Notes: generated by a model not told the origin, from the letters alone. DNA of 64,000 nt from Acidobacteriota bacterium (GCA_026393755.1 JAPKZO010000032.1:151342-215341); one strand, 5' to 3'. Shown: positions 16,477 to 50,448, counted from the stretch's first letter. Numbers and translations are program-made.

Positions 16477-16487
16477 ATAAAGGTTTA

Positions 16488-16516
16488 AGGATATCGCATG
16501 CTTCCGCGCCAGTAAA
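16488..16516 (-). promoter_or_regulatory. candidate sigma70-type promoter immediately upstream of atpB (would give a near-leaderless mRNA)
   Basis: Minus strand reads TTTACT-N17-TATCCT, then 11 nt to the ATG. It is an AT-rich patch with no SD before the ATG. Confidence 0.3.
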
Positions 16517-16602
16517 GCTCGTGCCAGCAATCGGCGGGGCGGCGGCCGGCTGGCACGGGGCCCGCGGTGGCGCTATACTCGAACCACAGAGGTGCACCAC
16601 CC

Positions 16603-18833: not shown

Positions 18834-19966
18834 CAGCGCGCGCCCTCGGCTGAAGGAACCAGCCCGGCCGATTCAAGAAAGACCCTGAGCGCTTCCGCGA
18901 TCGCCTCATGGCCGCGCGGCGTGAAGTGTGCGGTGTCCGTGAAGTAGACATCGCCGCCCCGCGACGCCTCACGCAGGGCGGGAAGCGTGTCCAACGTCGG
19001 CAACTTGAGGTCCGACAGCGTCGTCTTGAACCGCTCGGTCGCGCCGTCCCTCAGCAGCGTCTGACCCGCCTCGGCCACGCCTTTCTCCTGATAGCGGAAA
19101 TCATCGTCATCAACCTGGAAGCGCGCCGGAAAGAGGACGAGCGCGGTCTTCGCGTGTTGCGCGGATGCCACCGCGGTCATCCTGGACACGGACTCGCGAA
19201 TCAGGCCAAGTCCTTCGTCGACTTCCGGCGGCGGCTGCTGCAGATAGGCCCTGAGCGGCGGGTACACATCGGGGGTACGGCCGAAGTGGCCGACGAGCGT
19301 CAACACGCGAAGCCGTACGATTTGCAGCACCATGCTCCGCCGCACGAGGCGGCGCGCCCATACGCCAATCGTCTCTGCAGCCGGCGCAACCCCCGATTCG
19401 CTCGCCGGGACTCCGGCCAGTCGATAGGCGGACGCCCGGGCCTGCATCACGTCGTTGCCCGGGTACAGCCCGATCAGCACGACGTCAGGGTCGAAGGCCC
19501 TCGCGACGTAGTTGTAGAAAAGGTACTTCTCCACGGGTCCATAGCCCTGAACGCCTGCGTTGATGACGCGGTAGTGAAGACCCCCACCGGAATGCGTGGC
19601 GTTCAGTCGAGCCTCGAGCAGCTTGCAGAAGGTCTGGCTCGACTCCACCTGTACCGCCATGACGAGCGAATCGCCCAGCACGAGGATGCGGCGCTCATTG
19701 AGCGCCTTCGGCCCGATCTCCGCGTCTCGGACGCCCTGCCCGTTGATGGAAATCGTGGTCTCGTACTCGGAGGTGCGAAATCGCGTCTGCGCGCCCGGCC
19801 GGAGCCGGTGGCCAATGCGTGGATCCGTCATGAAGAGCCGCTGGAATTCGGGCGCGGCCTCGGATCCGCCGGCCAGCCGGAGCGCAATCTCGAACGTCGC
19901 GAATTCGCAGGCCACGATGGCCGCGATGACGAACCATCGTGATTTGAGGACGACTCTGGGGCGCAT
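18833..19966 (-). CDS. membrane-anchored SGNH/GDSL hydrolase-type (acyl)esterase/transferase
   Basis: N-terminal TM (WFVIAAIVACEFATF), block I ILVLGDSLV and block V DTAHFTPRGHEAI. The stop overlaps the MBOAT start (TGATG). Confidence 0.8.
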   Translation of the reverse strand: MRPRVVLKSRWFVIAAIVACEFATFEIALRLAGGSEAAPEFQRLFMTDPRIGHRLRPGAQTRFRTSEYETTISINGQGVRDAEIGPKALNERRILVLGDSLVMAVQVESSQTFCKLLEARLNATHSGGGLHYRVINAGVQGYGPVEKYLFYNYVARAFDPDVVLIGLYPGNDVMQARASAYRLAGVPASESGVAPAAETIGVWARRLVRRSMVLQIVRLRVLTLVGHFGRTPDVYPPLRAYLQQPPPEVDEGLGLIRESVSRMTAVASAQHAKTALVLFPARFQVDDDDFRYQEKGVAEAGQTLLRDGATERFKTTLSDLKLPTLDTLPALREASRGGDVYFTDTAHFTPRGHEAIAEALRVFLESAGLVPSAEGAR

Positions 19967-19985
19967 CAATGGACCGGGCTTAAGG

Positions 19986-20450
19986 TTACCACGATCGTTT
20001 CTGCGGCTGGCGGACGAGCCTGACGGCTTCGATCGCGATGGCAACGACTGGAACGGTCACGCCGACGAACAGCCCAATCGGATCGGCGCGCAGCGGACCG
20101 AGCGCAACAACCGCTACCGCCGCGACGAGGGCGTACCGACTGACGAACCTGACCGTCGCCCGCGTGATTGCGCGCCGCGCGTTCGGCGGCGGCGCACTGT
20201 CCTCTCCGGCCGGAGGGGCCGCCCGCCAGATGCTGGCGTCCACCATCGACCGGACCGCCGCGTACCCGATTGCCATCATCCCGGCGCCGGCCAGCACGCC
20301 GTACGCCAGGCCGGGACGGCCGCGGTCAACGACCAGTGCCCCGAGAATGGCGACAACACAGATCACGGCCGTATCGCGTTTGATGCGGCGCAACGAATCA
20401 TCGCGTTCGCGGTACTTGCCCATGGAGACTGCGTCGGCAGGGACGCTCAC
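19986..20450 (-). CDS. atpI: ATP synthase protein I-like small membrane protein
   Basis: 154 aa with 4 hydrophobic segments. GTGA overlap with the upstream atpZ-like gene. The assignment rests on position and architecture and is moderate only. Confidence 0.55.
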   Translation of the reverse strand: MSVPADAVSMGKYRERDDSLRRIKRDTAVICVVAILGALVVDRGRPGLAYGVLAGAGMMAIGYAAVRSMVDASIWRAAPPAGEDSAPPPNARRAITRATVRFVSRYALVAAVAVVALGPLRADPIGLFVGVTVPVVAIAIEAVRLVRQPQKRSW

Positions 20451-20773
20451 TGCTCGCGCTGCCCATCCTCATCGACCGGTGTCGCTGGCGGCAACTCCGC
20501 CGGCGGCGCCCCGTCTGCGCTGTCCCGAGCCGGCGGCGTCGTGCCGGGAGGAAACGCCTGCGACACGGTACGGAAGACATTGAGAACGCCTGCAGCCAGG
20601 CCCAGGAAGAAACCTAAGATCGTCAGCACTGGTCCCGTGTGCAACCACGCGTCCAGCCTGTTGCCGATCCAGAACCCCATGACCAGCGCAAGCACGAACG
20701 ACAGCCCGACCGTGCTCAGCGCGCCGGCCGAGCGAAGGGCCTCCCGGCTGTTCTTCATCGAACGATTGGTCAT
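20447..20773 (-). CDS. atpZ: AtpZ/AtpQ-type (ATPase gene 1 family) small membrane protein
   Basis: ALRSAGALSTVGLSFVLALVMGFWIGNRLDAWLHTGPVLTILGFFLGLAAGVLNVFR matches the two-TM pattern I recall for this family. Confidence 0.7.
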   Translation of the reverse strand: MTNRSMKNSREALRSAGALSTVGLSFVLALVMGFWIGNRLDAWLHTGPVLTILGFFLGLAAGVLNVFRTVSQAFPPGTTPPARDSADGAPPAELPPATPVDEDGQREQ

Positions 20774-20872: not shown

Positions 20873-22825
20873 TCAGGCGGGTGGCAGGATCACCGGCGGC
20901 AATTCGACGAACACATTGACGAGCGTCGCCACGCCGACCCACGCGACACCCAGACATACGATCCCCGCAGCCAGCCTGAGCGGCAGATGGCGCGAGTCGA
21001 ATCCCCGGGCGATGGCAAGCCCCCCGGCCAGTGCGACAAACGGCTGCATGGCCAGCGTGGCCCGCACCTCAAGCGGCGTGACTATGCCCAGAACCGCAAA
21101 TACGGCGCACACCATCAGCCAGCCCCACATGGCCAGCGTGAGCGCGTCGCGCCGCTTCTCTCGAACGAAGACGAATACGCCCGCCGCGGCAGCCGCCAGC
21201 AACGCGTACGAGTAGCTCCACAACAGGAATCGGAAGAAGGTCGCGACCCGCCCACCCTGCTGTGACACGGTCGGCACCATCGATCGCCGCGAGGTTTCGC
21301 CCGCGAGGATCCGGTGGACGGTCGTCTCGTACACGGTCTGGAAATGCTGGTAGTAGAGGAGGTACGACGCGACGATCGCGAGCCCCAGCGCGAAGGCAAA
21401 CCAGCCGCGCGCCGCCTTCACGTCACGCCCGGTGCCGAACGACCAGGCGGCAACGACGCCCGCCGCCAGTACCGGGCCGAGGAGCGCCGTGCCGAAGTGG
21501 GACATGAAGCCACCTGCCAGCAGGAGCGACACCACGGTCGACCAGAGCCAGGCTGGGCGGGATCCGACCAGGCACACCCCGAACAGCACCGCCGCCGAGA
21601 CGACACTCTGCGCGAATGCGTTGCTCAGATTGCCCGTCGCCATCGTCTGGACGCCAACCGGAGCCAGCATATAGAAGAGCGCGGCGGCGCAGGCCGCACT
21701 CGGGAGACGCCAGATCCGCAGACCCGCAAACAGAATCGCCAGGGCCGCGATCGCATCCGCGACAAGCCCGATGCCCCTCAGCAGTCCGACGTGATTGGCA
21801 ATCGCTTTCCAGAACGGCACGGCCAGCACGAACATCCCGGGCGCGTACGGGAATTCGAAGTACGGGGGTGGCGTCACCGATGTAAAGAAGAAGTTGCCGG
21901 CAGCCACGTAGTCGGCGCGGTGCGCCTGGAACATGCTGTCGCCGATCGGCGCGTTGGGGTGCAGGAACAGGACGAGCCGCAAGAGGGTGATGACGACGAT
22001 CAAGAAGACGGTCGTCGGTACGAGGCGTGTCCGAGCGTGCCGCCTGGCGGCAGACCGTGCGCCGATCACCGCGCCGGCAACGAGCGCCCACACGGCCAGC
22101 GGCGCGAACGCGTCCGAGAAGTCACACAGGAACGCCGCATCGCGCACGAGCAGCCACGCGTGCCAGCCCGTGGTGGCTACGGCCGCCCCCACAATCACCG
22201 GCCACGAGCATCCCGCGACCGCCGCGCCTGCGCCGTAGAATGCCGCGGCCGCGACCGACTGCCCGAGTGCTCTTGTCGGCAGCGGGAACCGGCCCGTCTC
22301 GGGCGCGAGCGCGAACGCCTCGACGATGAACCCGAGTGTCCGCTTGTCCTGGGGTCCGGGCACGAACGTTCGTGCCGCCGTCATCGTGACCGAGGCGGTG
22401 TCGCGCGTGGCCGGCGGAATCTCGACCGCGATCGCCATTCGATGATCGAGCAGGTCGAAGGGGATGGGACGCCTGGCGCCGTCGACCAGCAGTTCAACTG
22501 GCAGCGGGGCCGACGGTCCGCCTCTCGCCACGATCGTCAGCCGATAGCCGACGTGGCGATCCAGCCGCCGCACGCTGACGACCGCGGACCTTCGTGTCCA
22601 CGCGAACGCCGGCACGCTCTCGGGGTACTCCACGGGGTAGAATCCGCCGGTCTTGAACCAAGCCGGCGAGGTCGAGAGCCAGTCGTTGCCTTCCGAGACC
22701 GATCGCACCAGCTCCCGTGGACCGGCGGCATACCACCAGGCCGTTGGCACGGCCAGTCCAATCAGGGCCGAGAGCGCCGTAGCTCCCACGACGCGTACAA
22801 GCCAGCCCCGCATGCTTCGCCTCAT
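20873..22825 (-). CDS. large polytopic membrane protein, paralogue of 4302-6284 (GT-C-like)
   Basis: Shared blocks: GFYPVEY..FAWTRR / GFYPPEH..FVWTMRR; VPGPQDKRTLGF / VPGQSDPRALGV; FQAHRADYVAAGNFFFT / FHAHRFEWVLAGRFYFT; GNLSNAFAQSV / ANLTNAFGQSV; YYQHFQTVYETT / YWGHFGSVYRTQ. The start is uncertain: ATG at 22825 or 22813, GTG at 22900. Confidence 0.7.
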   Translation of the reverse strand: MRRSMRGWLVRVVGATALSALIGLAVPTAWWYAAGPRELVRSVSEGNDWLSTSPAWFKTGGFYPVEYPESVPAFAWTRRSAVVSVRRLDRHVGYRLTIVARGGPSAPLPVELLVDGARRPIPFDLLDHRMAIAVEIPPATRDTASVTMTAARTFVPGPQDKRTLGFIVEAFALAPETGRFPLPTRALGQSVAAAAFYGAGAAVAGCSWPVIVGAAVATTGWHAWLLVRDAAFLCDFSDAFAPLAVWALVAGAVIGARSAARRHARTRLVPTTVFLIVVITLLRLVLFLHPNAPIGDSMFQAHRADYVAAGNFFFTSVTPPPYFEFPYAPGMFVLAVPFWKAIANHVGLLRGIGLVADAIAALAILFAGLRIWRLPSAACAAALFYMLAPVGVQTMATGNLSNAFAQSVVSAAVLFGVCLVGSRPAWLWSTVVSLLLAGGFMSHFGTALLGPVLAAGVVAAWSFGTGRDVKAARGWFAFALGLAIVASYLLYYQHFQTVYETTVHRILAGETSRRSMVPTVSQQGGRVATFFRFLLWSYSYALLAAAAAGVFVFVREKRRDALTLAMWGWLMVCAVFAVLGIVTPLEVRATLAMQPFVALAGGLAIARGFDSRHLPLRLAAGIVCLGVAWVGVATLVNVFVELPPVILPPA

Positions 22826-22914
22826 CTGTGATTCCGGAGACTTGCGCGCTGAGTGCGCGTCGATTCCGGGCCGACGTCCCCCCCGGGCGGGCCGACGCAC
22901 GGTCGTGAATCGCC

Positions 22915-24390
22915 CTAGAACGACGTCGCCGTGGCGGCGACCACGCCGAGCGTCCTGGCCGACGCCTCGGCCAGCTCAAAGAGCGGCCGCGGGTAGACTC
23001 CCAGGATGATCGTGGCGGCCAGCGCCACCACCAGCACCGCCGCGAGCGCGGGGGCCGGTCTCGGATCAGAGCCGGTGGGATCGCCCTTCATGAACATGAA
23101 CACGACGATACGAAGGTAGTAGTAGAGCGAGATGGCGCTGTTGAGGACGCCGATGACGGCGAGCCAGTAGTACTGCGCGTCGATGGCCGCGCTGAACAGC
23201 CAGAACTTGCCCATGAACCCGGCGGTCGGCGGAATGCCCCCCAGCGACAGCATGAAGATCAGCATGGCCAGGGCGCCGAACGGCTGCCGCGCAAACAGGC
23301 CGCTCAGATCCTTGAGTTCGTCGCCGATGGCGTCGGCTCGGCGCATCATGATGACGACGGCGAAGGCGCCGATCTGCATGAAGGCGTAGACCGCCAGGTA
23401 GATCATCATCGCCGTGACGCCGCGCGGCGTACCGGCGACGACGCCGATCAACAGGTACCCGGCGTGCGCGATCGACGAGTACGCCAGCATGCGCTTGATG
23501 TTGGTCTGCGTCAGCGCGGCGACGTTGCCCACTGTCATCGTGACGATCGCCATGGCGTAGAACAGCATCTTCCAGTCGTCGGCCATCGATGGGACGCCTT
23601 CGAAGAAGATCCTGAGCAGCATGGCGAACGAGGCCGCCTTTGATCCGACCGAGAGGAAGGCGGTAATCGGCGTCGGCGCGCCCTCGTACACGTCCGGCGC
23701 CCACATATGGAACGGCACCGCCGCGATCTTGAAACCCATGCCGGCGACCACGAGGATGACCGCCAGGACGAGCCACGGATCGCGGCCGTGCTCGGCGATC
23801 TTGATGGCGAGCACGTGCAGGTTGGTGGTGCCAGACATCCCGTACAGCAGGGACATCCCGTACAGCAGCAGTCCAAGCGAGAACGTGCCCAGGAGGAAGT
23901 ACTTGACCGCCGCTTCGTTCGACAGGCGGTTGGACTTGAGCATCCCGGCCAGGATGTAGAACGCGATCGCCATCGTCTCGAGGCCGATGAAGAGCGTGAT
24001 CAGGTCCGTGCCGCCTGCCATGAACATCATGCCGATCGTCGCGCACAGCACCATGAACACGTACTCGCCGTGCCGGGTCCCCTCGATGTCGAGGTACCGC
24101 ACCGACATCAGCAGCGTCAGCGCCGCCGAGAGCAGGAAGATCGCCTTGAAGAACGTGCCGAACGCGTCGACGGCGACCACGCCGTGGGCGAGGCTCACAG
24201 GCGGCCCGCCGGCCACCGACGCGAGCGTGATCCCGGACGCCGCCAGCGCCGCGATGCCGAGCCACGACATGATCCGCTGATGCGGCCGCGGAATGAACGT
24301 GTTCACCACGAGCAGCACGAGCGTGGCGCCGGTGAGCACCAGCTCCGGCAGCAGGTAGTAGAGATCCGAGGTCGAGAACCAGGCTGGCAT
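22915..24390 (-). CDS. nuoN: NADH-quinone oxidoreductase subunit N
   Basis: Contains EAAVKYFLLGTFSLGLLLYG and KIAAVPFHMWAPDVYEGAPTPITAF. The start overlaps the nuoM stop (TGATG). Confidence 0.92.
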   Translation of the reverse strand: MPAWFSTSDLYYLLPELVLTGATLVLLVVNTFIPRPHQRIMSWLGIAALAASGITLASVAGGPPVSLAHGVVAVDAFGTFFKAIFLLSAALTLLMSVRYLDIEGTRHGEYVFMVLCATIGMMFMAGGTDLITLFIGLETMAIAFYILAGMLKSNRLSNEAAVKYFLLGTFSLGLLLYGMSLLYGMSGTTNLHVLAIKIAEHGRDPWLVLAVILVVAGMGFKIAAVPFHMWAPDVYEGAPTPITAFLSVGSKAASFAMLLRIFFEGVPSMADDWKMLFYAMAIVTMTVGNVAALTQTNIKRMLAYSSIAHAGYLLIGVVAGTPRGVTAMMIYLAVYAFMQIGAFAVVIMMRRADAIGDELKDLSGLFARQPFGALAMLIFMLSLGGIPPTAGFMGKFWLFSAAIDAQYYWLAVIGVLNSAISLYYYLRIVVFMFMKGDPTGSDPRPAPALAAVLVVALAATIILGVYPRPLFELAEASARTLGVVAATATSF

Positions 24391-26147
24391 CAGTCGCGCC
24401 CTCCTGTCGGGCTCCCCTCGGGGCCCGGCCCCGGTTTCTTCGTTGCCCCCTTCGACTCGGACCCTTTCGCAGACTCGTTCAGGGCCGGGACTGAAGCCTT
24501 GGGCTCGCTCGGGGCCGGTTTGGCGGCCGTCCCGGCGGCGGCATCGCACGGCGCCATCGACACAAACGGGTTGGCGGGCTTGGCGGCCGGTGTCTCGCCG
24601 CAGTCATTCGGCTTCGCCGCCGCCTTCGCCACCGCGGGTGCCGCATACGCCGAGTTCAGCCTTGCGATGACGGTCTTGACCGTCGGGTCAATCTTCTCGA
24701 GGAACGGCGTCGGATAGATGCCAATCCACACGGCCAGAATGATGAGCGGCGCGAAGGTCATGAACTCGCGGAAATTCAGGTCCAGCAGTTTCTCGTTCTT
24801 CGGATTCTCGATCTTGCCGAACATCGTCCGCTGATACAGCCACAGCATGTACGCCGCGCCCAGCACAACGCCGCTTCCCGCCAGCGTCGCCCAGAGCATG
24901 CCGTGTCCGGGCACCATGAAGACCCCCGCCAGGATCAGGAACTCGCCGATGAACCCGTTCAGCGTCGGCAACCCGATCGACGACATCGTCATGATCATGA
25001 AGATCGCGGCGTAGATGGGCATCACCTTCGACAGCCCGCCGTACTCGGAGATCTGGCGCGTGTGCCGCCGTTCGTAGACGACGCCGACGAGCAGGAAAAG
25101 GGCGCCGGTCGAAATGCCGTGGTTAAGCTGCTGGATAATGCTGCCGGCCATGCCGACCGGATTGAGCGCGAACATGCCCAGCGTCACCATGCCCATGTGG
25201 CTGACGCTGGAGTACGCGACCAGCCGCTTCCAGTCCTTCTGCGCCATCGCCACCAGCCCACCATAGATGATGCCGATGATCGAAAGCGTCACCATCATCG
25301 GCACGAACGTGCGGGATGCGTCGGGCAGGATCGGCAGGCTGAACCGGATGAAGCCGTACGTGCCCATCTTCAGGAGGATGGCCGCCAGAATCACGGACCC
25401 GGCCGTTGGCGCGTCGGTGTGCGCATCAGGCAACCAGGTGTGGAACGGGAACATCGGGACCTTGATGGAGAACCCGAGGAAGAATGCCAGGAACAGCCAC
25501 CACTGCAGGCCGGTGGGAATGTTCGCCGCTTGATACTTCGTGATGTCGAACGACCAGACCTGCGTCACTTCGTGATAGTGGAAGTAGAGCGCCAGAATGC
25601 CGAGCAGCATGACCACGCTGCCGACCAGCGTGTACAGGAAGAACTTGATCGCCGAGTAGAGCCGCCGATCGCTGCCCCAGATGCCGATCAGGAAGTACAT
25701 CGGCACCAGCATCACTTCCCAGAACAGGAAGAACAGCAGGAAGTCCAGCGAGATGAAGGCGCCAATCATCCCGCTCTGGAGGACGAGCAGGAAGATGTAG
25801 TACTCCTTGACCCGCTCGGTGATGGCCGTCCACGACGACAGGATGGCGATGACGCCCATCAGTGTCGTCAGCAGGATCAGCAGCACGCTGAACCCGTCCA
25901 CGCCCAGGAAGTACTCCGCCCCGATCGACGGAATCCAGGGGCACCGCTCGACGAACTGGAACTGCGCGCCAGCCGGGTTGTACGCGAACCACAGCGGCAG
26001 CGACACCACGAACCCGATGAACGCGACGATGTTCGCGATCCACCGGATGAGGTTCGTCTGCTGCCGGCTCACGAACAACAGCAGCACAGCCCCGAGAAGC
26101 GGGGTGAACAGAATGATCGAGAGAAGATGGGAGTTGGCGTCGTTCAC
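24390..26147 (-). CDS. nuoM: NADH-quinone oxidoreductase subunit M with ~87-aa low-complexity C-terminal tail
   Basis: Contains FHTWLPDAHTDAPTAGSVILAAILLKMGTYGFIRF. GTG start at 26147. Confidence 0.92.
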   Translation of the reverse strand: MNDANSHLLSIILFTPLLGAVLLLFVSRQQTNLIRWIANIVAFIGFVVSLPLWFAYNPAGAQFQFVERCPWIPSIGAEYFLGVDGFSVLLILLTTLMGVIAILSSWTAITERVKEYYIFLLVLQSGMIGAFISLDFLLFFLFWEVMLVPMYFLIGIWGSDRRLYSAIKFFLYTLVGSVVMLLGILALYFHYHEVTQVWSFDITKYQAANIPTGLQWWLFLAFFLGFSIKVPMFPFHTWLPDAHTDAPTAGSVILAAILLKMGTYGFIRFSLPILPDASRTFVPMMVTLSIIGIIYGGLVAMAQKDWKRLVAYSSVSHMGMVTLGMFALNPVGMAGSIIQQLNHGISTGALFLLVGVVYERRHTRQISEYGGLSKVMPIYAAIFMIMTMSSIGLPTLNGFIGEFLILAGVFMVPGHGMLWATLAGSGVVLGAAYMLWLYQRTMFGKIENPKNEKLLDLNFREFMTFAPLIILAVWIGIYPTPFLEKIDPTVKTVIARLNSAYAAPAVAKAAAKPNDCGETPAAKPANPFVSMAPCDAAAGTAAKPAPSEPKASVPALNESAKGSESKGATKKPGPGPEGSPTGGRD

Positions 26148-26189
26148 TGCTGCCGTCCTGGATTAAGGGTCACCCGAATCAACATCCGC

Positions 26190-28577
26190 CTACCGCGACA
26201 TCAGGTAGATGCTCACAAATGCAAACACGCCGAACAACATGACGAGCGCGTAGTTCTGAATCAGCCCGGTCTGGAGGCGGCGGAACACGAAGCTCCCCTC
26301 TTCCAGCACGGCCCCGACGAAGTTCACCAGACCATCGACGACGTACTGATCGATGACGTGCGAGAACCGCGACCACAACATGGTCATCCAGCCCGTGCCG
26401 TTGACGGCACCGTCGACCACCTGCGCGTCGAACACCCACAAGCCACGGGCCGACGCCATTGTGCCGGCAATCGCCGTGGCGGCGTAGAACTCGTCCACGT
26501 AGTACTTGTTGGAGAGCACGCGATGAGCGCCCGCCCACCGTTGGGCCAGCCGGTCGGCAATCTCGGGCGCCCGCACGTAGAAGCGATACGCGACCATGAT
26601 GCCGATGACGCCCATCAGAACCGAGACCGCCATCAGGCCCATCTCGCCCCACCACGAGATGTGCGGCTCGCCTTCACCCTCGACTGCTGCAGCATGTGCA
26701 GCGGTAGCCGCTTCACCATGCGATTCGACCGTGGATGCAGGTGCGCCCTTCGATCCGCCTTCGCCCCCTTCGGGGGCCGCGGCGTGACTGGCCGTTCCGG
26801 CCAGCTCCGCGGTGGTTGCGGGCTTGCTCAGGGTTCTCGCTTCGTTCGTGGCGGATGCCGTCGCGTGTTCCGCCCCGACCGCCTGGGCCACGAAACTCGG
26901 CTCGAGGAAGTGCTCGATGTCGTTGTTGCCGTTGAGCGCCGCCGGCACGCCCACGAAGCCCGCGAGGAGCGCGCCCACCGCCAGGATCATGAGCGGAATG
27001 GTCATCGACTTCGGCGACTCGTGCGGCCCGTGCCATCCGCCTTCGCCGTGTCCACCAGTGCCGTGACCGGCTACGGCGTGACCGTGGGTTCCACCGCCGC
27101 CGTGGCTGTCGTCAGCGGCGTGGCCCGCCCCATGGCCGGCTGACGCCACCGGGCCGTGGCCCGTGGTGGTGCGTCCATGGCCGCCCGCTTCCTCGAACGC
27201 CGGGCCGCGGTACGTCCCGAAGAACGTCATCGACATCAGGCGATACATGTAGAACGCCGTCATCAGGGCCGTGACCACCGCGACGCCCCAGATGATTCTG
27301 TTGCTCTGGTACGCCCGGAACAGGATCTCGTCCTTGCTGAAGAACCCGGAGAGCGGCGGGATGCCCGCGATCGCCAGCGTGCCGATGAGCATCGTCACGT
27401 ACGTCACCGGGAGGTACTTCTTCAGCCCGCCCATGTGCCGCATGTCCTGCTGGCCGGCCATTGCGTGGATGACCGATCCCGAACAGAGGAAGAGCAGCGC
27501 CTTGAAGAACGCGTGCGTCATCAGGTGGAACGCGCCGGCCGCGTACGCCCCGACGCCCATGGCCAGGAACATGAAGCCGAGCTGCGACACGGTCGAATAC
27601 GCGAGCACCCGCTTGATGTCGTTCTGGACGAGGCCGATGGTCGCCGCCATGAACGCGGTGGCCACGCCGATAATCGCCACGATCTGCATCGTTTCCGGCG
27701 AATGCGAGAAGAGCACGGCGTTGCGGCCCACCATATACACGCCGGCCGTGACCATCGTCGCCGCGTGGATCAGGGCGGAGACCGGCGTCGGGCCTTCCAT
27801 CGCGTCGGGCAACCAGACGTACAGCGGAATCTGGGCCGACTTGCCGGTGGCCCCGATAAACAGGAGCAGCGTGATGAGCGACAGCGTGCCAAACCCGGCG
27901 CTCTCGACGGGCATCGACCCGGCCGCATTCGCCACGGCGCGGAAATCCAGCGTGCCGAACACCGAGAAGATGAGGAATATCCCGAGGATGAAGCCCCAGT
28001 CTCCGATGCGGTTGACGATAAAGGCTTTCTTACCGGCGTCAGATGCGCTCTTCTTCTCGTAGTAATAGCCGATCAAGAGGTACGAACAGAGCCCCACGCC
28101 CTCCCACCCGACGAACATCACGACGAAGTTGTCGCCGAGCACGAGCATCAGCATGAAGAACACGAAGAGGTTGAGGTATGTGAAGAAGCGCGCGTAGGCG
28201 CCTCTCGACTCTCCGTGCATGTAGCCGACCGAATAGACGTGGATCAGGAACCCGATCCCGGTGACCACGAGGATCATCATCGCGGAGAGCGGGTCGAGCC
28301 GGAATCCCCAGGGAATGCTGAAGCTGCCGATCGTGCCGTCTCGCAGCTGCAGGGGCAGCGCGGAGATCCAGGTCAGCGGGCGCACGACGTACTCGCGCGC
28401 CTCGGGCCCGAGCGTGAGCAATTCGAAGAAGGCGTAGAACGACAGTGCCAGCGCGCCGGCCATCGTCGCACACGCCAGCAGGCCCGCCGCGCGCTTGCTG
28501 AAGTAGCGCACGCCGACGACGCCATTGACGAGGGCGCCAAACGCGGGCAACAGAGGAATCAGCCAGATCAGGTGCAT
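26190..28577 (-). CDS. nuoL: NADH-quinone oxidoreductase subunit L (795 aa, unusually long)
   Basis: MHLIWLIPLLPAFGALVNG start 5 nt after the nuoK stop. Canonical antiporter-like core (WLPDAMEGPTPVSALIHAATMVTAGVY), an HESP motif and a C-terminal lateral-helix region. Confidence 0.92.
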   Translation of the reverse strand: MHLIWLIPLLPAFGALVNGVVGVRYFSKRAAGLLACATMAGALALSFYAFFELLTLGPEAREYVVRPLTWISALPLQLRDGTIGSFSIPWGFRLDPLSAMMILVVTGIGFLIHVYSVGYMHGESRGAYARFFTYLNLFVFFMLMLVLGDNFVVMFVGWEGVGLCSYLLIGYYYEKKSASDAGKKAFIVNRIGDWGFILGIFLIFSVFGTLDFRAVANAAGSMPVESAGFGTLSLITLLLFIGATGKSAQIPLYVWLPDAMEGPTPVSALIHAATMVTAGVYMVGRNAVLFSHSPETMQIVAIIGVATAFMAATIGLVQNDIKRVLAYSTVSQLGFMFLAMGVGAYAAGAFHLMTHAFFKALLFLCSGSVIHAMAGQQDMRHMGGLKKYLPVTYVTMLIGTLAIAGIPPLSGFFSKDEILFRAYQSNRIIWGVAVVTALMTAFYMYRLMSMTFFGTYRGPAFEEAGGHGRTTTGHGPVASAGHGAGHAADDSHGGGGTHGHAVAGHGTGGHGEGGWHGPHESPKSMTIPLMILAVGALLAGFVGVPAALNGNNDIEHFLEPSFVAQAVGAEHATASATNEARTLSKPATTAELAGTASHAAAPEGGEGGSKGAPASTVESHGEAATAAHAAAVEGEGEPHISWWGEMGLMAVSVLMGVIGIMVAYRFYVRAPEIADRLAQRWAGAHRVLSNKYYVDEFYAATAIAGTMASARGLWVFDAQVVDGAVNGTGWMTMLWSRFSHVIDQYVVDGLVNFVGAVLEEGSFVFRRLQTGLIQNYALVMLFGVFAFVSIYLMSR

Positions 28578-28582
28578 ACCAC

Positions 28583-28885
28583 TCACCACCGCATCAGGTT
28601 CATCTCGTCGATGTTGATGGTTTCCTTGTTGCGGTAGAACGCGAGGATGATGCCCAGGCCCACCGCGGCCTCGGCCGCCGCCACGCAGATGACGAACACG
28701 GCGAAGACCTGCCCGGTCACGTCTCCAAGTTGCCGCGAGAATGCGATCAGGTTGATGTTCACCGCATTGAGCATCAACTCCATCGACATGAGAATGATGA
28801 TGATGTTGCGGCGCGTCATCACGCCGACGACGCCGAGCATGAAGAGCGCCGCCGAGAGCACCAGGTAATGTGTCTGCGTAACCAT
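28583..28885 (-). CDS. nuoK: NADH-quinone oxidoreductase subunit K
   Basis: 100 aa: [48 protein letters not shown]. It is the last part of the long 28583-30337 ORF. SD AGAGGA. Confidence 0.92.
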
Positions 28886-28893
28886 CTGATCCT

Positions 28894-29394
28894 CTACTGC
28901 TGCCGCTTGGCCAGCACGATGGCGCCAATCATCGCCACCAGCAACAGCACCGACGCCACCTCGAACGGCACCAGGTAGTCGGTGTACAGGGCGCGGCCAA
29001 CCTGCTCGATGTTCTTGGCGTCCAGCGTTCCCCCGAAGCCCGACGGCTTGAGCCATCCATAGGCGCCAATCGCCATGAGTTCCGCGAACACGGCCAGCGC
29101 CATCACCAGGCCCAGCCGGCCGAGCCGGCGCGGATCGACGTGCAGCTCGGGCGGGCGCTTCAGGTTCACCAGCATCACCACGAACAGGTACAGGACGACG
29201 ATGCCGCCGGCGTAGACCATCACCTGGATGACGGCCAGGAACGGAGCCTCCAGCACCACGTACAGCGCCGCGACGCACAGGAAATCGGCCACCAGAAACA
29301 GCACGCTGTGCACGGTGCTCTTCGCCGTGATGACGAGCACGGCGAATCCGAGTATCAGCGCGGCGAAGATGTAGAACACAACGGCTTCGGCCAT
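28894..29394 (-). CDS. nuoJ: NADH-quinone oxidoreductase subunit J
   Basis: Contains [24 protein letters not shown]. 166 aa. Confidence 0.9.
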
Positions 29395-29412
29395 AGTTCT
29401 CCGCGAGGGGCG

Positions 29413-30441
29413 CTATCGGTTCAGCAGCACCTTCAAGAAGCCGGTCACCACCACGTTCAGGATGGCCAGCGGAATCAGCCACTTCCAGCCCAGTCGCATC
29501 AGCTGGTCGTACCGGTAGCGCGGGTACGTCGCGCGCACCCACAGGAAGACGTACAGGAAGAGGAACGTCTTCAAGCAGAACCAGATCCAGCCCGGCACGA
29601 TCCCGAGCCACCACAGCCACGACACGTTCGGGAACGGCTGCAGCCAGCCGCCGAAAAACAGCGTCGTCGCCACCGCCGACACCACGATCATGTTCGCGTA
29701 TTCGGCCAGGAAGAAGAACGCGAACCGCATCCCGGAATACTCGGTGTGGAAGCCGGCCACCAGTTCCTGCTCGGCTTCCGGCAGGTCGAACGGCGCGCGG
29801 TTGGTCTCGGCCAGCCCGCCGACACAGTAGATGAAGAACGCGACCGGCTGCATGAACGCGAACCACATCCCCGCCTTCGCCTGCGCGGCCACAATCCCCA
29901 CCATACTCAGGGTGCCCGCCAGCATGATGACCGTGACCAGCGTCATCGTCACCGCGATCTCGTAGCTGATGAGCTGGGCGGACGCCCGCAGGCTGGCAAT
30001 CAGCGGATACTTGCTGTTCGACGACCAGCCGCCGAGGATGATGCCGTAGATCCCGAGCGAGGCCACCGAGACGATGTAGAGCATGCCGACGTTCACGTCG
30101 GCGATGCGGCCAGAAATCGGCAGCCCGAACAGCTTCATCTCGTTCGACGCGAACGGGATGACGGCAAACGCGATGAGCGCCGGCACCAGCACCATGATCG
30201 GCGCCGCCGTGAACACCCACTTGTCGGCCATCACCGGCGTGATGTCTTCCTTGACGAACAGCTTCAGCACATCGGCCAGCGGCTGCAGGATGCCGTGCGG
30301 CCCTACGCGCATCGGGCCGAGCCGCACCTGCACCCACGCCTGCACCTTGCGCTCGAGTAGGACGATGTACATCACCGTCGCCAGCACCGCCGCCAGGACG
30401 ATGACAATCTTGATGAGCGGGAAAACGACGGCTTCAGTCAT
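29413..30441 (-). CDS. nuoH: NADH-quinone oxidoreductase subunit H
   Basis: Contains [40 protein letters not shown] and [23 protein letters not shown]. Confidence 0.93.
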
Positions 30442-30454
30442 GGGTCGTGATTAC

Positions 30455-31594
30455 CTACCGATCCACCTCGCCAAGCACGATGTCGATGGTGCCAATAAGC
30501 GCCACGACATCGGCAATCAGGTGGCCCCTCACCAGCTGCCGGAGCGCCTGCAGATTGCAGAACGACGGCGGCCTGACCCGGAACCGGTACGGGCTGACCG
30601 ACTTGCCGTCGCTCACGATGAAGTACCCGAGCTCGCCCTTCGGCGCTTCGATCGCGTGATAGGTCTCGCCCGCCGGGGGCTTGATCAGGCGCGGCACCTT
30701 GCCCATCACCGGCCCCTCGGGAAGCCCCTCGACCGCCTGGCGGATGATCCGCAACGACTGGCGGAACTCCTCGAGGCGGACCAGGTAGCGATCATACGTG
30801 TCGCCCTTGACCCCGATGGGAATGTCGAAATCCATCTCCGCGTAGGCGGCGTACGGCTCGTCCTTCCGGACGTCGCGCACCACACCCGACGCGCGCAGGG
30901 GCGGACCGCACATCCCGATGGCAATCGCGTCGGCCGCCGAAATGACGCCGACGTTGATGGTGCGCTCCATCCAGATCCGGTTGCTCGTCAGCAACTGCTC
31001 GTACTCGGGCAGCTTCTGCTCCTGGATCTCGCAGAACCGCAGCACCTTCTTGTCCCAGCCCTCCGGCACGTCGGCCGGCTGGCCGCCGATGCGCATGCAG
31101 TTGTACGTCAGCCGCGCGCCGCAGTACTCCTCGAACAGGTCGAGCACCAGTTCGCGTTCCCGCAATCCGTAGAGCAGCACGGTCAGCGCGCCGATGTCGG
31201 CGGCGTGCGTGCCCAGCCAGAGCAGATGGCTCGCGACGCGCTGAAGCTCGGAAAGGATCGTGCGGATGTACTTCGCCCGGCGCGGCACCTCGAGCGACAT
31301 CAACTTCTCAACCGTCTCGACGTAGCCAAGGTTGTTGGTCGCCGCCGCGCAGTAATCCATCCGGTCCGTAATCAGGACAATCTGCGTCCAGTCCCGGTTC
31401 TCGCAGAGCTTCTCGACGCCGCGGTGCAGGTAGCCGATGACGGCGTCACAATCGACGACCTTCTCGCCGTCGAGCTTCAGCACAAGCCGCAGCACGCCAT
31501 GCGTGCTGGGGTGCTGGGGCCCCATATTGATGACCAGTTCGTCGGTGTCGAACATCGGGCGGGCGGGTTCTCGCTGCATGGTCACGGTGCTCAC
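30455..31594 (-). CDS. nuoD: NADH-quinone oxidoreductase subunit D
   Basis: Contains [35 protein letters not shown] and the C-terminal [31 protein letters not shown] overlap with the nuoC stop. Confidence 0.93.
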
Positions 31595-32172
31595 TCGATG
31601 TCGGCCTCAACCGCCGTCTGCCTTGCCTTCAACCAGTCCTGCGGGTTCTCCATCAGGAGCTCACCAGGTCCCTCTAGCGGGTAGTCCTTGCGCTGCGGAT
31701 GCCCCTGCCAGTCGAGCGGCATCAGAATCCGCCGGAGATCCGGATGCCCGGTAAACGGCACGCCGAACATGTCGTACACCTCGCGCTCCAGCCAGTTCGC
31801 GGCGGGCCACAGACCGGTCACCGACGGCACGGATTCGCCATCCGCCAGGTGCACCTTGACGCGCAGCCGATGCCGCAGCCCGATCGAGTAGAAGCTCAGG
31901 ATCAGATCAAACCTCTTGCCGGGCCGGGCCGGCCAATCGCTCGCCGTCAGATCGGACAGGTAGTTGAACTCGCACTCGGGCGCATCGCGCAGGAAGGCCG
32001 CCACGTCCAGCAGCCGGTCGGCAGCCACGACGACCGACCAATCGCCGACCCAGAAACTCACCTGTTCGACCGCACCCGGCAGGCCGGCCTGTAGAGCCGC
32101 GATGAAGGGCGGCATCGCCATCTCGGCTGGCGGCGCCTGATCGGGCGGCATCTTTACAATTTCTTCGGACAT
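31591..32172 (-). CDS. nuoC: NADH-quinone oxidoreductase subunit C
   Basis: Contains [37 protein letters not shown] at 32172 preceded by GGAGAG. Confidence 0.9.
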
Positions 32173-32185
32173 TACCGCTCTCCGA

Positions 32186-32566
32186 CTACGCCCATTCCAA
32201 GGCGCCCTCACGCCAGGCATAAACATACCCGACCACGAGGATGAACAGAAACACCATCATCTCGATGAATCCAAACCACAACAGCGAATCCATGATGACG
32301 GCATAGGGATAGAGGAACACCGTCTCCACGTCGAAGATCAGGAACAGCATGGCCACCATGAAGTACCGCACGCTGTAGCGGTCACGCGCGTCGGTCTTCG
32401 GCTCGATCCCGCACTCGTACGGATCGAGCTTGACCTTGCCCGCCCGGTGCGGCGCAACGAGTCGGGCCACCAGCAGGGTGCCCACCCCAAACGCAATCGC
32501 GACCAGGATGTAGATGAGAATCGGAATCCACGCGTTGACCATCGACGTATCACCCGGGAGGGACAA
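32186..32566 (-). CDS. nuoA: NADH-quinone oxidoreductase subunit A
   Basis: Contains YECGIEPKTDARDRYSVRYFMVAMLFLIFDVETVFLYP. The start may instead be the ATG at 32542 (MVNAW); the listed start is TTG. Confidence 0.9.
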   Translation of the reverse strand: MSLPGDTSMVNAWIPILIYILVAIAFGVGTLLVARLVAPHRAGKVKLDPYECGIEPKTDARDRYSVRYFMVAMLFLIFDVETVFLYPYAVIMDSLLWFGFIEMMVFLFILVVGYVYAWREGALEWA

Positions 32567-32662
32567 CAGGAACGCCAGCCTCTCGCACCGGCGCGTTCAA
32601 CACCACAGCCCACGGGTTATAACACGCGCCTCAAAGATCGGTCAAGAAGGCCAAGTGGCGTG

Positions 32663-32692
32663 CTGACAATCATTTCGAGCTTTCGCTATACT
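32663..32692 (+). promoter_or_regulatory. candidate sigma70-type promoter for the VWA gene pair
   Basis: CTGACA-N18-TATACT, 37 nt upstream of the GTG start at 32730, in the 163-bp divergent nuoA/VWA intergenic region. Confidence 0.4.
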
Positions 32693-32729
32693 GATTAACG
32701 AGCCTGCCTCCAACAAGGATGAATGAGCC

Positions 32730-33647
32730 GTGAACCTGACGCTGCTGCGCGCGCCTCGTCGGCTGGTGTTTCCCGTTCTGACGCTTGCGTTGTTCACCGC
32801 ACTTCTCCCCGGCCGTGCGGCCGCTCAGGCGCTCGAACGCGACATCTTCGTATCCGTACTTGATCGCTCAGATAAACCGGTGCCGAATCTCGGACCGCGC
32901 GATTTCGCCATCCGCGAGGATGGCCGCCTGCGCGAGGTCCTGAGAGTGCGCCGGGCGACCGAGCCGATTGATCTGGCGGTGCTGGTCGACACCAGCGCGG
33001 CCGCCGGAGCACAAATCAGCGATTTGCGTCTCGGGCTCGAGGCGTTCGTCAGAAGAATGCTCCCGCAGGCGCACATCGCGCTGGTTGAGTTCGGCGAGCG
33101 CCCCCATGTGCTGACCGATTACACGAGCAACGCCGCACTGCTGGCGCAGGGCGTCGGGCGGATCTTCTCGATTGCGGGGTCCGGCGCCTACGCACTCGAC
33201 GCGATCGTTGACACGCTGAACGGGATGAAGAAACGAGAGGCCGAGCGATCGGCGATCCTCGTCGTCTGGCTGGGCGGCTATGAATTCAGCAACCTGGCGT
33301 ACAGCCGCGTACTGGACTTGCTTGCCGAACAGGGCCCGGCGCTTCACGTGCTCACGGTCTCGGCTGGCGTTCCCCCCGACATGATGACGGTCGACGGGCA
33401 GAGCCGCGAACACGTGTTTGACGCCGGCACACGCACGAGCGGAGGCAGCCGGCGGAACGTGCAGTCGTCGATGGCCATCCAGGACGCGCTGGGTCGGGTC
33501 GCGACAGAACTGCTCTCGCAGTACCGCGTCACCTATGCGAGACCGCAGATGCTGATTCCACCCGAAACGATCGACGTGCGTGCGACCAGATCCGGTCTGA
33601 CCGCACGCGGCACGCCGGTCCGGGTCAAGACGAGTCCACCCAGGTGA
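32730..33647 (+). CDS. secreted VWA domain protein (Acidobacteria-type VWFA-related family, recalled as TIGR03436)
   Basis: Signal peptide followed by FVSVLDRSDKPVPNLGPRDFAIREDGRLREV...LAVLVDTSAA, the hallmark N-terminal region of this family. Confidence 0.8.
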   Translation: MNLTLLRAPRRLVFPVLTLALFTALLPGRAAAQALERDIFVSVLDRSDKPVPNLGPRDFAIREDGRLREVLRVRRATEPIDLAVLVDTSAAAGAQISDLRLGLEAFVRRMLPQAHIALVEFGERPHVLTDYTSNAALLAQGVGRIFSIAGSGAYALDAIVDTLNGMKKREAERSAILVVWLGGYEFSNLAYSRVLDLLAEQGPALHVLTVSAGVPPDMMTVDGQSREHVFDAGTRTSGGSRRNVQSSMAIQDALGRVATELLSQYRVTYARPQMLIPPETIDVRATRSGLTARGTPVRVKTSPPR

Positions 33648-34594
33648 TGTTCCGATCACGAACGGTCGCCCTGGCCCTGGTGCTGGCCGCGGCCGCATCG
33701 GTGGTTCTCGCCGGGCGGCCGACGCCGCAGGGCAACACGCCGTTACAAAGCGGGGCGTTCCGCAGCGGCGTCGACGTCGTCGCACTCAACGTGACCGTCA
33801 CCGATGCCGCCGGACGATACGTCATGGATCTGTCCCGGGACAACTTCTTCGTCTACGAGGATGGCACCAGACAGGACGTCACCTTCTTCAGCCGCACCAG
33901 CCTGCCGCTCGCCATCTCCCTGCTGGTCGATACAAGCGCCAGCATGGAAGACAAGATGGCGACGGTCCGCGCGGCAGCCACCGGATTCGTCGCGCGCCTT
34001 CGGCCCGAAGATCGGACGCAGCTCATCGAGTTCGACAGCCGCGTCAATGTCCTGCTGCCGTTCACCAGCGCTCATCCGGATCTGAATCGCGCCATCGCGT
34101 CGCTCGAGACCGGCGGGTCGACCGCGCTCTACAACGCGGTCTACATCTCGCTCAAGGAACTCAAGAAGAACCAGGCGCGCAGTGCCGACGAACTCCGGCG
34201 CCAGGCCATCGTGCTGCTGACCGACGGCGAGGATACGTCGAGCCTGGTTCCGTTTGAGGAAGTCCTCGAGCAGACGAAGCGGTCCGAAACCGCGGTCTAT
34301 GCCATCGGCCTGCGCGCGCAGGATTCGAATATCGGCAAGGAACACAGCGAGGCGGAGTACGTCCTCCGCCAGATCACCAGCCAGACTGGGGGCCGCGTGT
34401 TCTTTCCCGAGACGGTTGCGGACCTTCCCGGCATCTACAACCAGATCTGGCAGGAGCTCTCGAGCCAGTACCTGGTGGGCTACTCGTCGAAGAATCCTCG
34501 CCGGAACGGCGCGTGGCGCCAGGTGGTCGTCCGCGTCGAGCGCCCAGGCACGACGTCGAGGACCCGGCAAGGCTACTACGGGCCTTCGCTCTGA
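33647..34594 (+). CDS. secreted VWA domain protein (same family, tandem paralogue)
   Basis: Contains VALNVTVTDAAGRYVMDLSRDNFFVYEDGTRQDVTFF...ISLLVDTSASMEDKM (MIDAS DxSxS). Start overlaps the previous stop (GTGATG). Confidence 0.8.
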   Translation: MFRSRTVALALVLAAAASVVLAGRPTPQGNTPLQSGAFRSGVDVVALNVTVTDAAGRYVMDLSRDNFFVYEDGTRQDVTFFSRTSLPLAISLLVDTSASMEDKMATVRAAATGFVARLRPEDRTQLIEFDSRVNVLLPFTSAHPDLNRAIASLETGGSTALYNAVYISLKELKKNQARSADELRRQAIVLLTDGEDTSSLVPFEEVLEQTKRSETAVYAIGLRAQDSNIGKEHSEAEYVLRQITSQTGGRVFFPETVADLPGIYNQIWQELSSQYLVGYSSKNPRRNGAWRQVVVRVERPGTTSRTRQGYYGPSL

Positions 34595-34634: not shown

Positions 34635-36176
34635 ATGCCCAACCGTCCAATGGTGTGTTTTATCGGGGCGGGCCCGGGCGATCCGGGCCTGATCACTGTG
34701 CGAGGCGCCGACAGCCTCGGGCAGGCTGACGTGGTTGTCTACGACCGGCTCGTTCACCCGTCTCTACTGCAGTATGCCAGGCCTGATGCCGAGCGGATCG
34801 ACGTCGGGCGTGCGGCGCCACAGGGTACGGCCCGCGACGCGATTGCCTACCTCCTGCTCGAGAAGGTCCGCGAAGGCAAGCGGGTGGCACGCCTGAAGTG
34901 GGGTGATCCGTTTGTGTTCGACGATGGAGGCGAGGAAGCCCTGTTTCTCCACGAACATGGGGTGACGTTCGAGGTGGTGCCGGGTATTCCCGCGGCCGTC
35001 GGTGGCCCCGCCTACGCGGGCGTCGCGGTCACGTATCGAGGAGGCGGAGATACACTCACGCTGGTGCGCGGCAACGAGGACGCGGCAGAGGACACGCCGG
35101 ACCTCGATTGGGCGAGCCTCGCCAGACTCGACGGCACCATCGTCTGCTACGCCGGCCCCCGACAGCTTCCGGCCATGCTCGCGGCGCTGCGGGCCAATGG
35201 ACGGCCTGCCGAGGAGCCGGTGGCCCTGATCTACAACGCCACGCTGCCCACGCAGCGCACGATCGCCGGCACGCTGGCCTCGCTCGCCGACGCGGCCCTG
35301 CCCGCCGACACCCGGCCGGCCATCGTCGTCGTCGGACGCGTGGCCGCCCTGCGTGAGCACATGCGGTGGTTCGACGTGCGCCCGTTGTCGGGACGGCGGG
35401 TGGTGGTGACCCGGCCGCGCGAGCAGGCCCGCGAACTGGTCGACCTGCTCGAAGATCAGGGTGCCGATGTGATCGTGGCACCGACCGTCCGCATGGCGCC
35501 GCCGACAGATTATGCCGCGCTCGATGAGGCCTGTGGGAAGGTCGGCACGTTTGACTGGGTTGTGCTGCCGACACTGGCCGGGACCGACGTCTTCCTTCGA
35601 CGGCTGCTGGCGGGGCCTGGTGACGTCCGCAGCCTCCATGGCGTGGGCATCTGCGCGATTGGCCAGACGTCGGTCGATCGGTTCGCGGCGCTTGGCGTTC
35701 GGGTCGATGCCCAGCCGTCTGAGTACCGGCCCGAGGGCATCGTCGAGGCGCTGTCCGACACGCGCCGGCTCGACGGCCGTCGAATCCTGATTCCGCGCGC
35801 CGAAGGCGTCCGCGACGTGCTGGCGGCCGAGCTCCGGAGAGCCGGCGCGGAAGTGACCGAGGTCGCCGCGTATCGGATTGTGAAGGTGCTGCCCGGCGAT
35901 CCGGGCGAGCCCGATCTGTACAAGAAGCTGCTCGAGCAGCAGGTCGATATCCTCGTGTTCGGCAACCCGTCGACCGCCGGCGAATTCGTCGACAGTTACG
36001 GTGCCGAGGCGCTGGTTGATCTGCTGCCGACGACACTGGTCGCGTGCATCGGCCCTGTGACCGCGCAGGCGCTGCAGGCGCATGGGATCCACACGGACAT
36101 CGTCGCCGACGCTCATACGAGCGCGGGGTTGGTCGCGGCCATTGTGCGTCATGTGCGCGCGATGAAATCGGCGTAG
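34635..36176 (+). CDS. cobA-hemD: uroporphyrinogen-III C-methyltransferase / uroporphyrinogen-III synthase fusion
   Basis: N-half: VCFIGAGPGDPGLITVRGADSLGQADVVVYDRLV (SUMT motif). C-half is HemD-like (RRVVVTRPREQARELVDLLEDQGADVIVAPT). Confidence 0.88.
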   Translation: MPNRPMVCFIGAGPGDPGLITVRGADSLGQADVVVYDRLVHPSLLQYARPDAERIDVGRAAPQGTARDAIAYLLLEKVREGKRVARLKWGDPFVFDDGGEEALFLHEHGVTFEVVPGIPAAVGGPAYAGVAVTYRGGGDTLTLVRGNEDAAEDTPDLDWASLARLDGTIVCYAGPRQLPAMLAALRANGRPAEEPVALIYNATLPTQRTIAGTLASLADAALPADTRPAIVVVGRVAALREHMRWFDVRPLSGRRVVVTRPREQARELVDLLEDQGADVIVAPTVRMAPPTDYAALDEACGKVGTFDWVVLPTLAGTDVFLRRLLAGPGDVRSLHGVGICAIGQTSVDRFAALGVRVDAQPSEYRPEGIVEALSDTRRLDGRRILIPRAEGVRDVLAAELRRAGAEVTEVAAYRIVKVLPGDPGEPDLYKKLLEQQVDILVFGNPSTAGEFVDSYGAEALVDLLPTTLVACIGPVTAQALQAHGIHTDIVADAHTSAGLVAAIVRHVRAMKSA

Positions 36177-36190
36177 CCGGACGCGAGCCA

Positions 36191-38065: not shown

Positions 38066-38089
38066 TCGCCCCGTCCCCGTCGCCTCTCC

Positions 38090-39418: not shown

Positions 39419-39647
39419 ACGGATCCTCCGGACTTGGAGGATATGGTGTATCACGTTTTCTCTCAATCGGCTCATGGTGCAGCGGCCGTGTGAGCGCGGC
39501 GTCGGCGAGACACGACCTCTCTCCTCTCACTGGCCTCTCACTGAGCCGCAACCGGCTTGTGCTGCCGCCAAGCAGCGATTTCGGCGGGAGACCTGGCGCC
39601 CGACCTCGAGGGCCGCACGCGTCTCGTAGTAACCACGACCCGCTGGC

Positions 39648-49630: not shown

Positions 49631-49639
49631 CCACTCTTA

Positions 49640-50215: not shown

Positions 50216-50448
50216 TTCCGGAGCCCCCCGGTGAAACGGCCCTCGACCCGTCAAACGGTCGTGTTCCTAGCCTTCGTGAATGGTCCGGGCTAGTATACCC
50301 GGAGCGGATTTGCTGAACCGTGGTCCAACCTGATCCGTCTATATCCAGAGGACAGTCGTGTCCGAAGGGCGCGCCCGCGAGGACTCGCGCCGGCAAGCCG
50401 GCTGGGCCGATTAGGGAAGTTATCGCACAAGCCCTGGAGTCGATGGCA

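Follow-up and report, generated by a model that had tools for sequence, protein, structure and literature searches.

Introduction

The cofactor-bearing core subunits of complex I are exactly NuoB, NuoE, NuoF, NuoG, and NuoI. To our knowledge, no enzyme of the complex I family dispenses with the iron-sulfur (Fe-S) subunits NuoB, which carries cluster N2, and NuoI, which carries N6a and N6b. In the canonical 14-subunit NDH-1 of Escherichia coli (nuoA-N) and Thermus thermophilus (Nqo1-14), all five are encoded in a single operon with the remaining subunits, and NuoD is longer or fused to NuoC. The 11-subunit enzyme, as in Desulfitobacterium hafniense, has a short NuoD and no nuoEFG between nuoD and nuoH, and all of its 11 genes (nuoABCDHIJKLMN) form one operon (Moparthi and Hagerhall, 2011; PMC11238625). 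The electron donor of such complex I forms without the N module is an open question (PMC11238625). Here we analyze a nine-gene nuo operon at positions 22915-32566 of a 64,000-nucleotide (nt) stretch of an Acidobacteriota genome (GCA_026393755.1, JAPKZO010000032.1:151342-215341; the whole stretch is hereafter the window), in which the genes for all five cofactor-bearing subunits are missing.

The distribution of complex I genes over several loci, with a solitary nuoB, has precedents in cyanobacterial NDH-1 and in NUO-2 of Nitrospina gracilis, which comprises nuoACHIJKLMN, nuoEGD, and solitary nuoB2 and nuoF2 (PMC3578206). These systems belong to other phyla than the window, and Nitrospina splits off a different subset of genes, with nuoI staying in the operon and nuoD leaving it. 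The same gene order as in the window, with both nuoB and nuoI absent from the operon, has been described within the Acidobacteriota: one or more “nuoACDHJKLMN operons” were reported in seven of seven peatland acidobacterial metagenome-assembled genomes (MAGs), and one operon per MAG also holds nuoEFG (Hausmann et al., 2018, ISME J 12:1729, PMC6018796, supplement). In Table S2b of that study, the nuoB and nuoI of these MAGs are found on scaffolds other than those of the operons; in SbA1, for example, nuoB is SBA1_120039, SBA1_270046, and SBA1_1080008, and nuoI is SBA1_820058 and SBA1_1030003. Because the operons and nuoB/nuoI occur within the same MAGs, the layout is documented there together with its co-occurrence in one genome. 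The MAGs in question represent subdivisions 1 and 3, whereas the window belongs to the Vicinamibacterales. According to a survey from 2025 based on hidden Markov models (HMMs), most Acidobacteriota have a complete complex I, and “split” clusters occur in many clades. Acidobacteria and an unlinked nuoB are not mentioned by Spero et al. (2015), and our literature search found no paper on the function of the split arrangement.

Gene Content of the nuo Operon

The operon consists of nine co-directional open reading frames (ORFs) on the minus strand in the order nuoA-C-D-H-J-K-L-M-N, identified with Pfam and NCBIfam, each protein matching no family but its own (Table 1). The E-values are strong for all nine, the weakest one quoted being 2.2e-32 for NuoK in Pfam, and all seven membrane subunits (NuoA, H, J, K, L, M, and N) were found. 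With start codons chosen to fit the relatives, the computed gaps are 13 nt (A/C), 13 nt (D/H), 18 nt (H/J), 8 nt (J/K), 5 nt (K/L), and 42 nt (L/M), and the ORF coordinates give overlaps of 4 nt (C/D) and 1 nt (M/N); these figures are identical to those of the first-pass annotation of the sequence. Since no junction exceeds 42 nt, there is no space for any gene of about 470 nt or more; in particular, the short distances past the stop codons of nuoD and nuoH leave no room for nuoEFG and nuoI, respectively.

No Oxidored_q6 (NuoB) or Fer4 (NuoI) domain was detected in any of the nine proteins with Pfam and NCBIfam, and profile and homology searches revealed no fused NuoB or NuoI domain in the N-terminus of NuoC, the inserts of NuoL, or the tail of NuoM. 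A hidden fusion, for which the first-pass annotation had proposed a profile check, is thus excluded. When the six frames of the window were searched by tblastn, nothing was found with E. coli NuoB, E, F, G, and I (NC_000913; best E = 0.54) or with NuoB and NuoI of Vicinamibacteria (best E = 0.14), and an HMM profile of NuoB gave no match in the same six frames. The initial description of an A-C-D-H-J-K-L-M-N operon without nuoB, E, F, G, and I was therefore borne out by both the family assignments and the window-wide searches.

Some of the start codons allow alternatives. The relatives have a 118-amino-acid (aa) form of NuoA, which corresponds to ATG 32542 in window numbering; the reading frame of nuoC is open upstream to 32226; and nuoD could start at ATG 31579, giving 374 aa.

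Table 1. Genes of the nuo operon and of its flanks (window numbering)
Gene	Position	Strand	Product and start	Family match (E-value)
nuoA	32186..32566	-	126 aa from TTG	Pfam Oxidored_q4, 7e-38
nuoC	31591..32172	-	193 aa from ATG 32172	Pfam Complex1_30kDa, 2.6e-46; TIGR01961
nuoD	30455..31594	-	short form, 379 aa from GTG	Pfam Complex1_49kDa, 2.3e-98
nuoH	29413..30441	-		Pfam NADHdh, 1.4e-124
nuoJ	28894..29394	-		Pfam Oxidored_q3, 1.4e-41
nuoK	28583..28885	-		Pfam Oxidored_q2, 2.2e-32
nuoL	26190..28577	-	795 aa	TIGR01974, 1.3e-213
nuoM	24390..26147	-	585 aa	TIGR01972, 3.7e-192
nuoN	22915..24390	-	491 aa; ATGA overlap with nuoM stop	TIGR01770, 1.5e-138
Two VWA-domain genes (context, not part of the enzyme)	32730..34594	+ (divergent from operon)		Pfam VWA/VWA_2
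atpZ-like (ATPase_gene1) and atpI-like (context, downstream)	19986..20773	-		Pfam ATPase_gene1, 3.7e-16; ATP-synt_I, weak match

Two of the large membrane subunits have additional segments. NuoL contains two low-complexity inserts (window 26669-27206), one rich in His/Gly at about aa 458-525 (GHGRTTTGHG...HGHAVAGHGTGGHGEGGWHGPHE) and one rich in Ala/Glu/Thr at about aa 562-640; since the NuoL proteins of relatives are between 697 and 779 aa long, the inserts are lineage-variable. NuoM carries a C-terminal tail of about 90 aa (aa ~496-585, window 24390-24662) that is rich in Ala/Pro/Lys and has no family match. In relatives, NuoM is 534-585 aa long.

Conservation of the Layout

The operon is covered by Logan unitigs from independent metagenome runs of freshwater and peat, which span the A/C junction (X3, 31939-32350) and the D/H junction (X2, 30367-30593) with 0 differences and the H/J junction (X5, 29361-29791) with 10 differences, the latter corresponding to a close strain. 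Assembly errors are therefore ruled out at these three junctions.

The nearest homologues of NuoD have 96% identity and bear the names Acidobacteriota or Vicinamibacterales. The placement in the Acidobacteriota, made initially from the sequence alone, was correct. A comparison of synteny in related Acidobacteriota, which had also been proposed, gave a uniform picture: the A-C-D-H-J-K-L-M-N order recurs in eight of eight related assemblies of Vicinamibacterales with NuoD 80-96% identical, among them the NCBI MAGs GCA_037133015.1, GCA_040960765.1, GCA_040961345.1, and GCA_040960975.1, as well as ENA long-read contigs of 0.6-6.2 Mb, one of which is the 6.23-Mb contig ERZ28763718:ctg125758. In the seven relatives' loci that were read to ±10 kb, the identity of other Nuo subunits goes down to 62-70%, and no NuoB, I, E, F, or G was found by tblastn in these flanks. 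The persistence of the same order despite such divergence indicates that the layout is old and stable.

Catalytic Residues and Enzyme Type

Alignment with the E. coli proteins showed conservation at all 18 positions examined in NuoL, M, N, K, and A. Residues E159/K246/K415/D416 of NuoL align with E. coli E144/K229/K399/D400; conserved as well are E144/K229/K260/E402 of NuoM, E138/K221/K251/K395 of NuoN, and the acidic residues E36/E72 of NuoK and D79/E81 of NuoA. Both NuoD motifs singled out in the first-pass annotation, GPQHPSTHG (aa 25-33) and DRMDY (aa 77-81), were located; they provide the His and Tyr of the quinone site, and NuoD has strong PDB matches to 49-kDa subunits. Judging from these sequences, the membrane arm and the scaffold of the quinone (Q) module look fully functional, and they depend on NuoB and NuoI for activity. 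Canonical NDH-1 shares with the window the homologous subunits A, C, D, H, and J-N and the same functional residues, but the identity is only 30-52%.

The affinity of the operon is seen in NuoD and NuoH. The short-NuoD model NF008974 matches the window protein end to end with 512.7 bits, just under its cut-off of 522 bits, and the match to TIGR01962 is broken into two stretches. NuoD and NuoH are 60 and 56% identical, respectively, to those of an acidobacterial operon without nuoEFG (L061, see below), compared with only 41-51% for operons that contain nuoEFG (Pyrinomonadaceae, Actinomycetota). The direct succession of nuoD and nuoH is also as in the enzymes without NuoEFG. By sequence, the enzyme thus appears closest to the NuoEFG-less “11-subunit” clade, with which it shares the short NuoD, the lack of nuoEFG between nuoD and nuoH, and the retained Q-module and pump residues; it differs from that clade in the absence of nuoB and nuoI from the operon.

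A reading of the locus as a [NiFe]-hydrogenase (group-4, relatives of Mbh-Mbx-Fpo) was considered and rejected, as NuoD has QHPSTHG and a C-terminal GEVDR instead of the NiFe-binding CxxC motifs. The match of NuoD to NiFeSe_Hases is weak and N-terminal. The NuoD motifs, together with the full Nuo complement of the operon, rule out a hydrogenase or Mrp reading.

Separate nuoB and nuoI Loci in Acidobacteriota

NuoB and NuoI, found neither in the operon nor in the window, are both encoded at a separate locus in Vicinamibacteria relatives. Homologues of Vicinamibacteria NuoB (from L017, see below) were found in thousands, one of them named as Vicinamibacterales NuoB, and NuoB and NuoI are ~86-100% identical across the order. 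On more than 40 contigs, including those of 6.1, 6.4, and 7.0 Mb, nuoI comes after nuoB, with a gap of 5-6 nt, in every case in which the contig reaches far enough, and no other nuo gene was seen near the cassette on these contigs. In one representative from Vicinamibacteraceae (L017, cassette at 3785-5106, GC 50%), nuoB encodes 178 aa with all four N2 cysteines, and nuoI, 6 nt away, encodes 156 aa with two CxxCxxCxxxCP motifs; another cassette is at 9712-11013 of L093, and further examples are L095-L104 and L109-L118. The neighbors of the cassette are lipA on the opposite strand at one side and TPR/aspartyl-protease and tricorn-like genes at the other. On most contigs, a gene for an 87-aa 7Fe-type ferredoxin lies 25-45 nt upstream of nuoB. 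This adjacent pair, often preceded by a ferredoxin gene, differs from the peatland MAGs of Hausmann et al. (2018), in which nuoB and nuoI appear under different scaffold tags.

For a broader view, a NuoB alignment with a consensus head was scanned against one genome per GTDB species, and tblastn searches with all Nuo subunits served to classify the 80 best loci. Matches from PLSDB supplied diverse NuoB sequences for the alignment; the tblastn search of NuoB against the PLSDB plasmids yielded no Acidobacteria. Among these 80 best nuoB loci, all 49 with actinobacterial titles had the canonical A-B-C-D-E-F-G-H-I-J-K... order. The acidobacterial loci (n = 26) were mostly solitary: in 20, the flanks of nuoB held no further nuo gene, and two contained nuoB-nuoI groups (L017 and the B-I-B group of L037). 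Three loci of Pyrinomonadaceae (L013, L018, and L035) had nuoA-B-C-D-E-F-G-H-J-K-L, with nuoB in place and nuoI missing between nuoH and nuoJ; these operons represent an intermediate state of the split. The remaining locus, L061, was a complete 11-gene operon without nuoEFG (A-B-C-D-H-I-J-K-L-M-N).

Several variants of the separate locus were also observed. In an uncultured Acidobacteriota MAG (L037:8860-10447), one NuoI-like gene lies between two NuoB paralogues, which are 73 and 71% identical to Vicinamibacteria NuoB, and no further nuo gene is present within 10 kb. Five ENA proteins of 237-278 aa (P0133, P0135, P0142, P0159, and P0175) combine a NuoB domain with Fer4 domains and are either NuoB-NuoI read-through fusions or long-read frameshift artefacts. 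A solitary nuoB with no nuo neighbors is also found on the Synechocystis plasmid pSYSG, on a Haloarcula marismortui plasmid, and on an Eleftheria terrae replicon (L009-L011).

Genomic Context of the Operon

The divergent pair of VWA genes precedes the operon in all eight related loci (for example, L002-L005 and L105-L107), and all seven loci for which ±10 kb were read have an ATPase_gene1 (atpZ-like) gene near nuoN. In the window, atpZ-like, atpI-like, and atpB (ATP synthase a subunit) genes are located downstream of the nuo operon, at 15667-20773 on the minus strand; they are separated by genes for a GDSL-hydrolase and an MBOAT acyltransferase. A 675-aa ORF (20873-22900, minus strand), apparently multi-pass membrane and without a Pfam match, starts 14 nt past the nuoN stop and may be co-transcribed with the nuo operon. 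In relatives, it is the atpZ-like gene that follows nuoN, and a similar ORF of ~640 aa with no Pfam match comes next (L105). A scan of promoters and terminators gave nothing above the shuffled expectation.

Elsewhere in the window, large ORFs with a coding-like GC content at third codon positions and no Pfam match at E <= 0.001 are located at 40-2331, 4215-6284, 34764-39475, and 49151-50293. Metagenomes of freshwater, peat, groundwater, permafrost, soil, and sediment contain sequence nearly identical to positions 26000-33000; the host is a widespread uncultured Vicinamibacterales lineage.

Discussion

Based on these results, the operon probably encodes part of an ordinary complex I-type enzyme whose genes are split between loci, with NuoB and NuoI supplied from a separate locus and with an affinity to the 11-subunit clade. 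The nine genes would provide the membrane arm in full (NuoA, H, J, K, L, M, and N) and the cofactor-free Q-module subunits NuoC and NuoD of a proton-pumping quinone reductase of the complex I type. NuoB and NuoI would not be replaced but would come from another chromosomal locus, which in Vicinamibacteria would be the nuoB-nuoI cassette, in many cases with the preceding gene for a 7Fe-type ferredoxin. That the genome of the window itself carries such a locus is suggested by the lineage-wide pattern and by the same-genome evidence for other Acidobacteria (Hausmann et al., 2018). The products of the two loci would then assemble post-translationally into an ordinary L-shaped complex, and electrons might enter from a donor other than NADH, such as reduced ferredoxin, or, with a somewhat lower probability, from an unlinked NuoEFG module.

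Three points weigh against this interpretation. In the Vicinamibacterales, the nuoB-nuoI pair and the nine-gene operon were never found on one contig or in one MAG in eight targeted look-ups and a cluster listing; they share some samples (ERZ28763718, ERZ25074053, and ERZ26167216) and no contig. One cassette (L092, GC 0.71) has no ferredoxin gene beside nuoB. Finally, we infer the assembly of the products of the two loci into one complex.

Among the alternatives, a full 14-subunit NADH:quinone oxidoreductase, in which B, I, E, F, and G all come from unlinked loci and dock on the membrane and Q modules of the operon, is rather unlikely, even though a complete complex I was found in most Acidobacteriota by the 2025 HMM survey and almost all MAGs of Hausmann et al. 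(2018) have one operon with nuoEFG. In those MAGs, however, nuoEFG is located inside a different nuoACDEFGHJ... operon and is not free-standing. Moreover, no nuoEFG was seen near the relatives' operons or near any nuoB-nuoI cassette, and the window NuoD, which is of the short type, and NuoH are clearly nearer to the operon lacking nuoEFG than to those containing it. It is still more doubtful that two or more paralogous membrane arms share one nuoB-nuoI pair under separate regulation, for example by iron or oxygen. This idea draws on the physical, and presumably transcriptional, independence of nuoB-nuoI and on the frequent presence of several nuoACDH... operons in Acidobacteria, but in Table S2b of Hausmann et al. 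(2018), which covers MAGs outside the Vicinamibacteria, orphan nuoB and nuoI are present in roughly the same numbers as the operons: in SbA1, three operons are accompanied by three nuoB and two nuoI, and SbA5 combines one operon lacking nuoB and nuoI with one orphan copy of each gene. The first-pass annotation had suggested that the Fe-S subunits are encoded elsewhere, perhaps as one module shared by several membrane arms; for NuoB and NuoI, the first part agrees with the separate conserved locus in related genomes, whereas the shared module finds no support, the orphan genes of those MAGs being about as numerous as the operons.

An unrecognized protein in place of NuoB and NuoI, the other possibility raised initially, and a role of the nine subunits as an Fe-S-free, redox-independent cation/proton transporter are both highly improbable. 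The only observation in their favor is the absence of nuoB and nuoI from the operon. Beyond the nine genes, the operon contains no ORF, and the genes in its conserved flanks are for VWA proteins and AtpZ, not for redox proteins. Without cluster N2, there would be no point in NuoC and NuoD having intact quinone-site motifs; furthermore, the lineage does have genuine and strongly conserved NuoB and NuoI, which retain all cluster ligands. No observation speaks for an artefact of assembly or binning, or for a recent deletion, as the cause of the missing nuoB, nuoEFG, and nuoI; this explanation is refuted by the unitigs from independent runs and by the identical order in eight other assemblies across a deep divergence, and its probability is negligible.

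The split nuo layout is the norm in Acidobacteriota, and the operon of the window is a further member of this known layout, from the Vicinamibacterales. The initial opinion that the arrangement had not been described does not hold, given the nuoACDHJKLMN operons with unlinked nuoB and nuoI reported by Hausmann et al. (2018; PMC6018796). This case calls for caution against over-reading the gene content of operons, as a nuo operon without nuoB and nuoI is normal in this phylum and indicates neither a cofactor-free nor a novel enzyme. Tools for pathway completeness that expect one cluster will mis-score such a split complex I.

In conclusion, the linkage of ferredoxin, nuoB, and nuoI genes in Vicinamibacteria offers a testable lead, in cultivable strains, on the donor of complex I without the N module. 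It is a tentative and quite unlikely proposal that the ferredoxin-nuoB-nuoI cassette is a separately regulated electron-input module, with the 7Fe-type ferredoxin as the donor, that might serve more than one membrane arm. If this were true, the cassette would provide a concrete, genetically linked candidate for the long-sought donor of complex I-like enzymes with 11 subunits.

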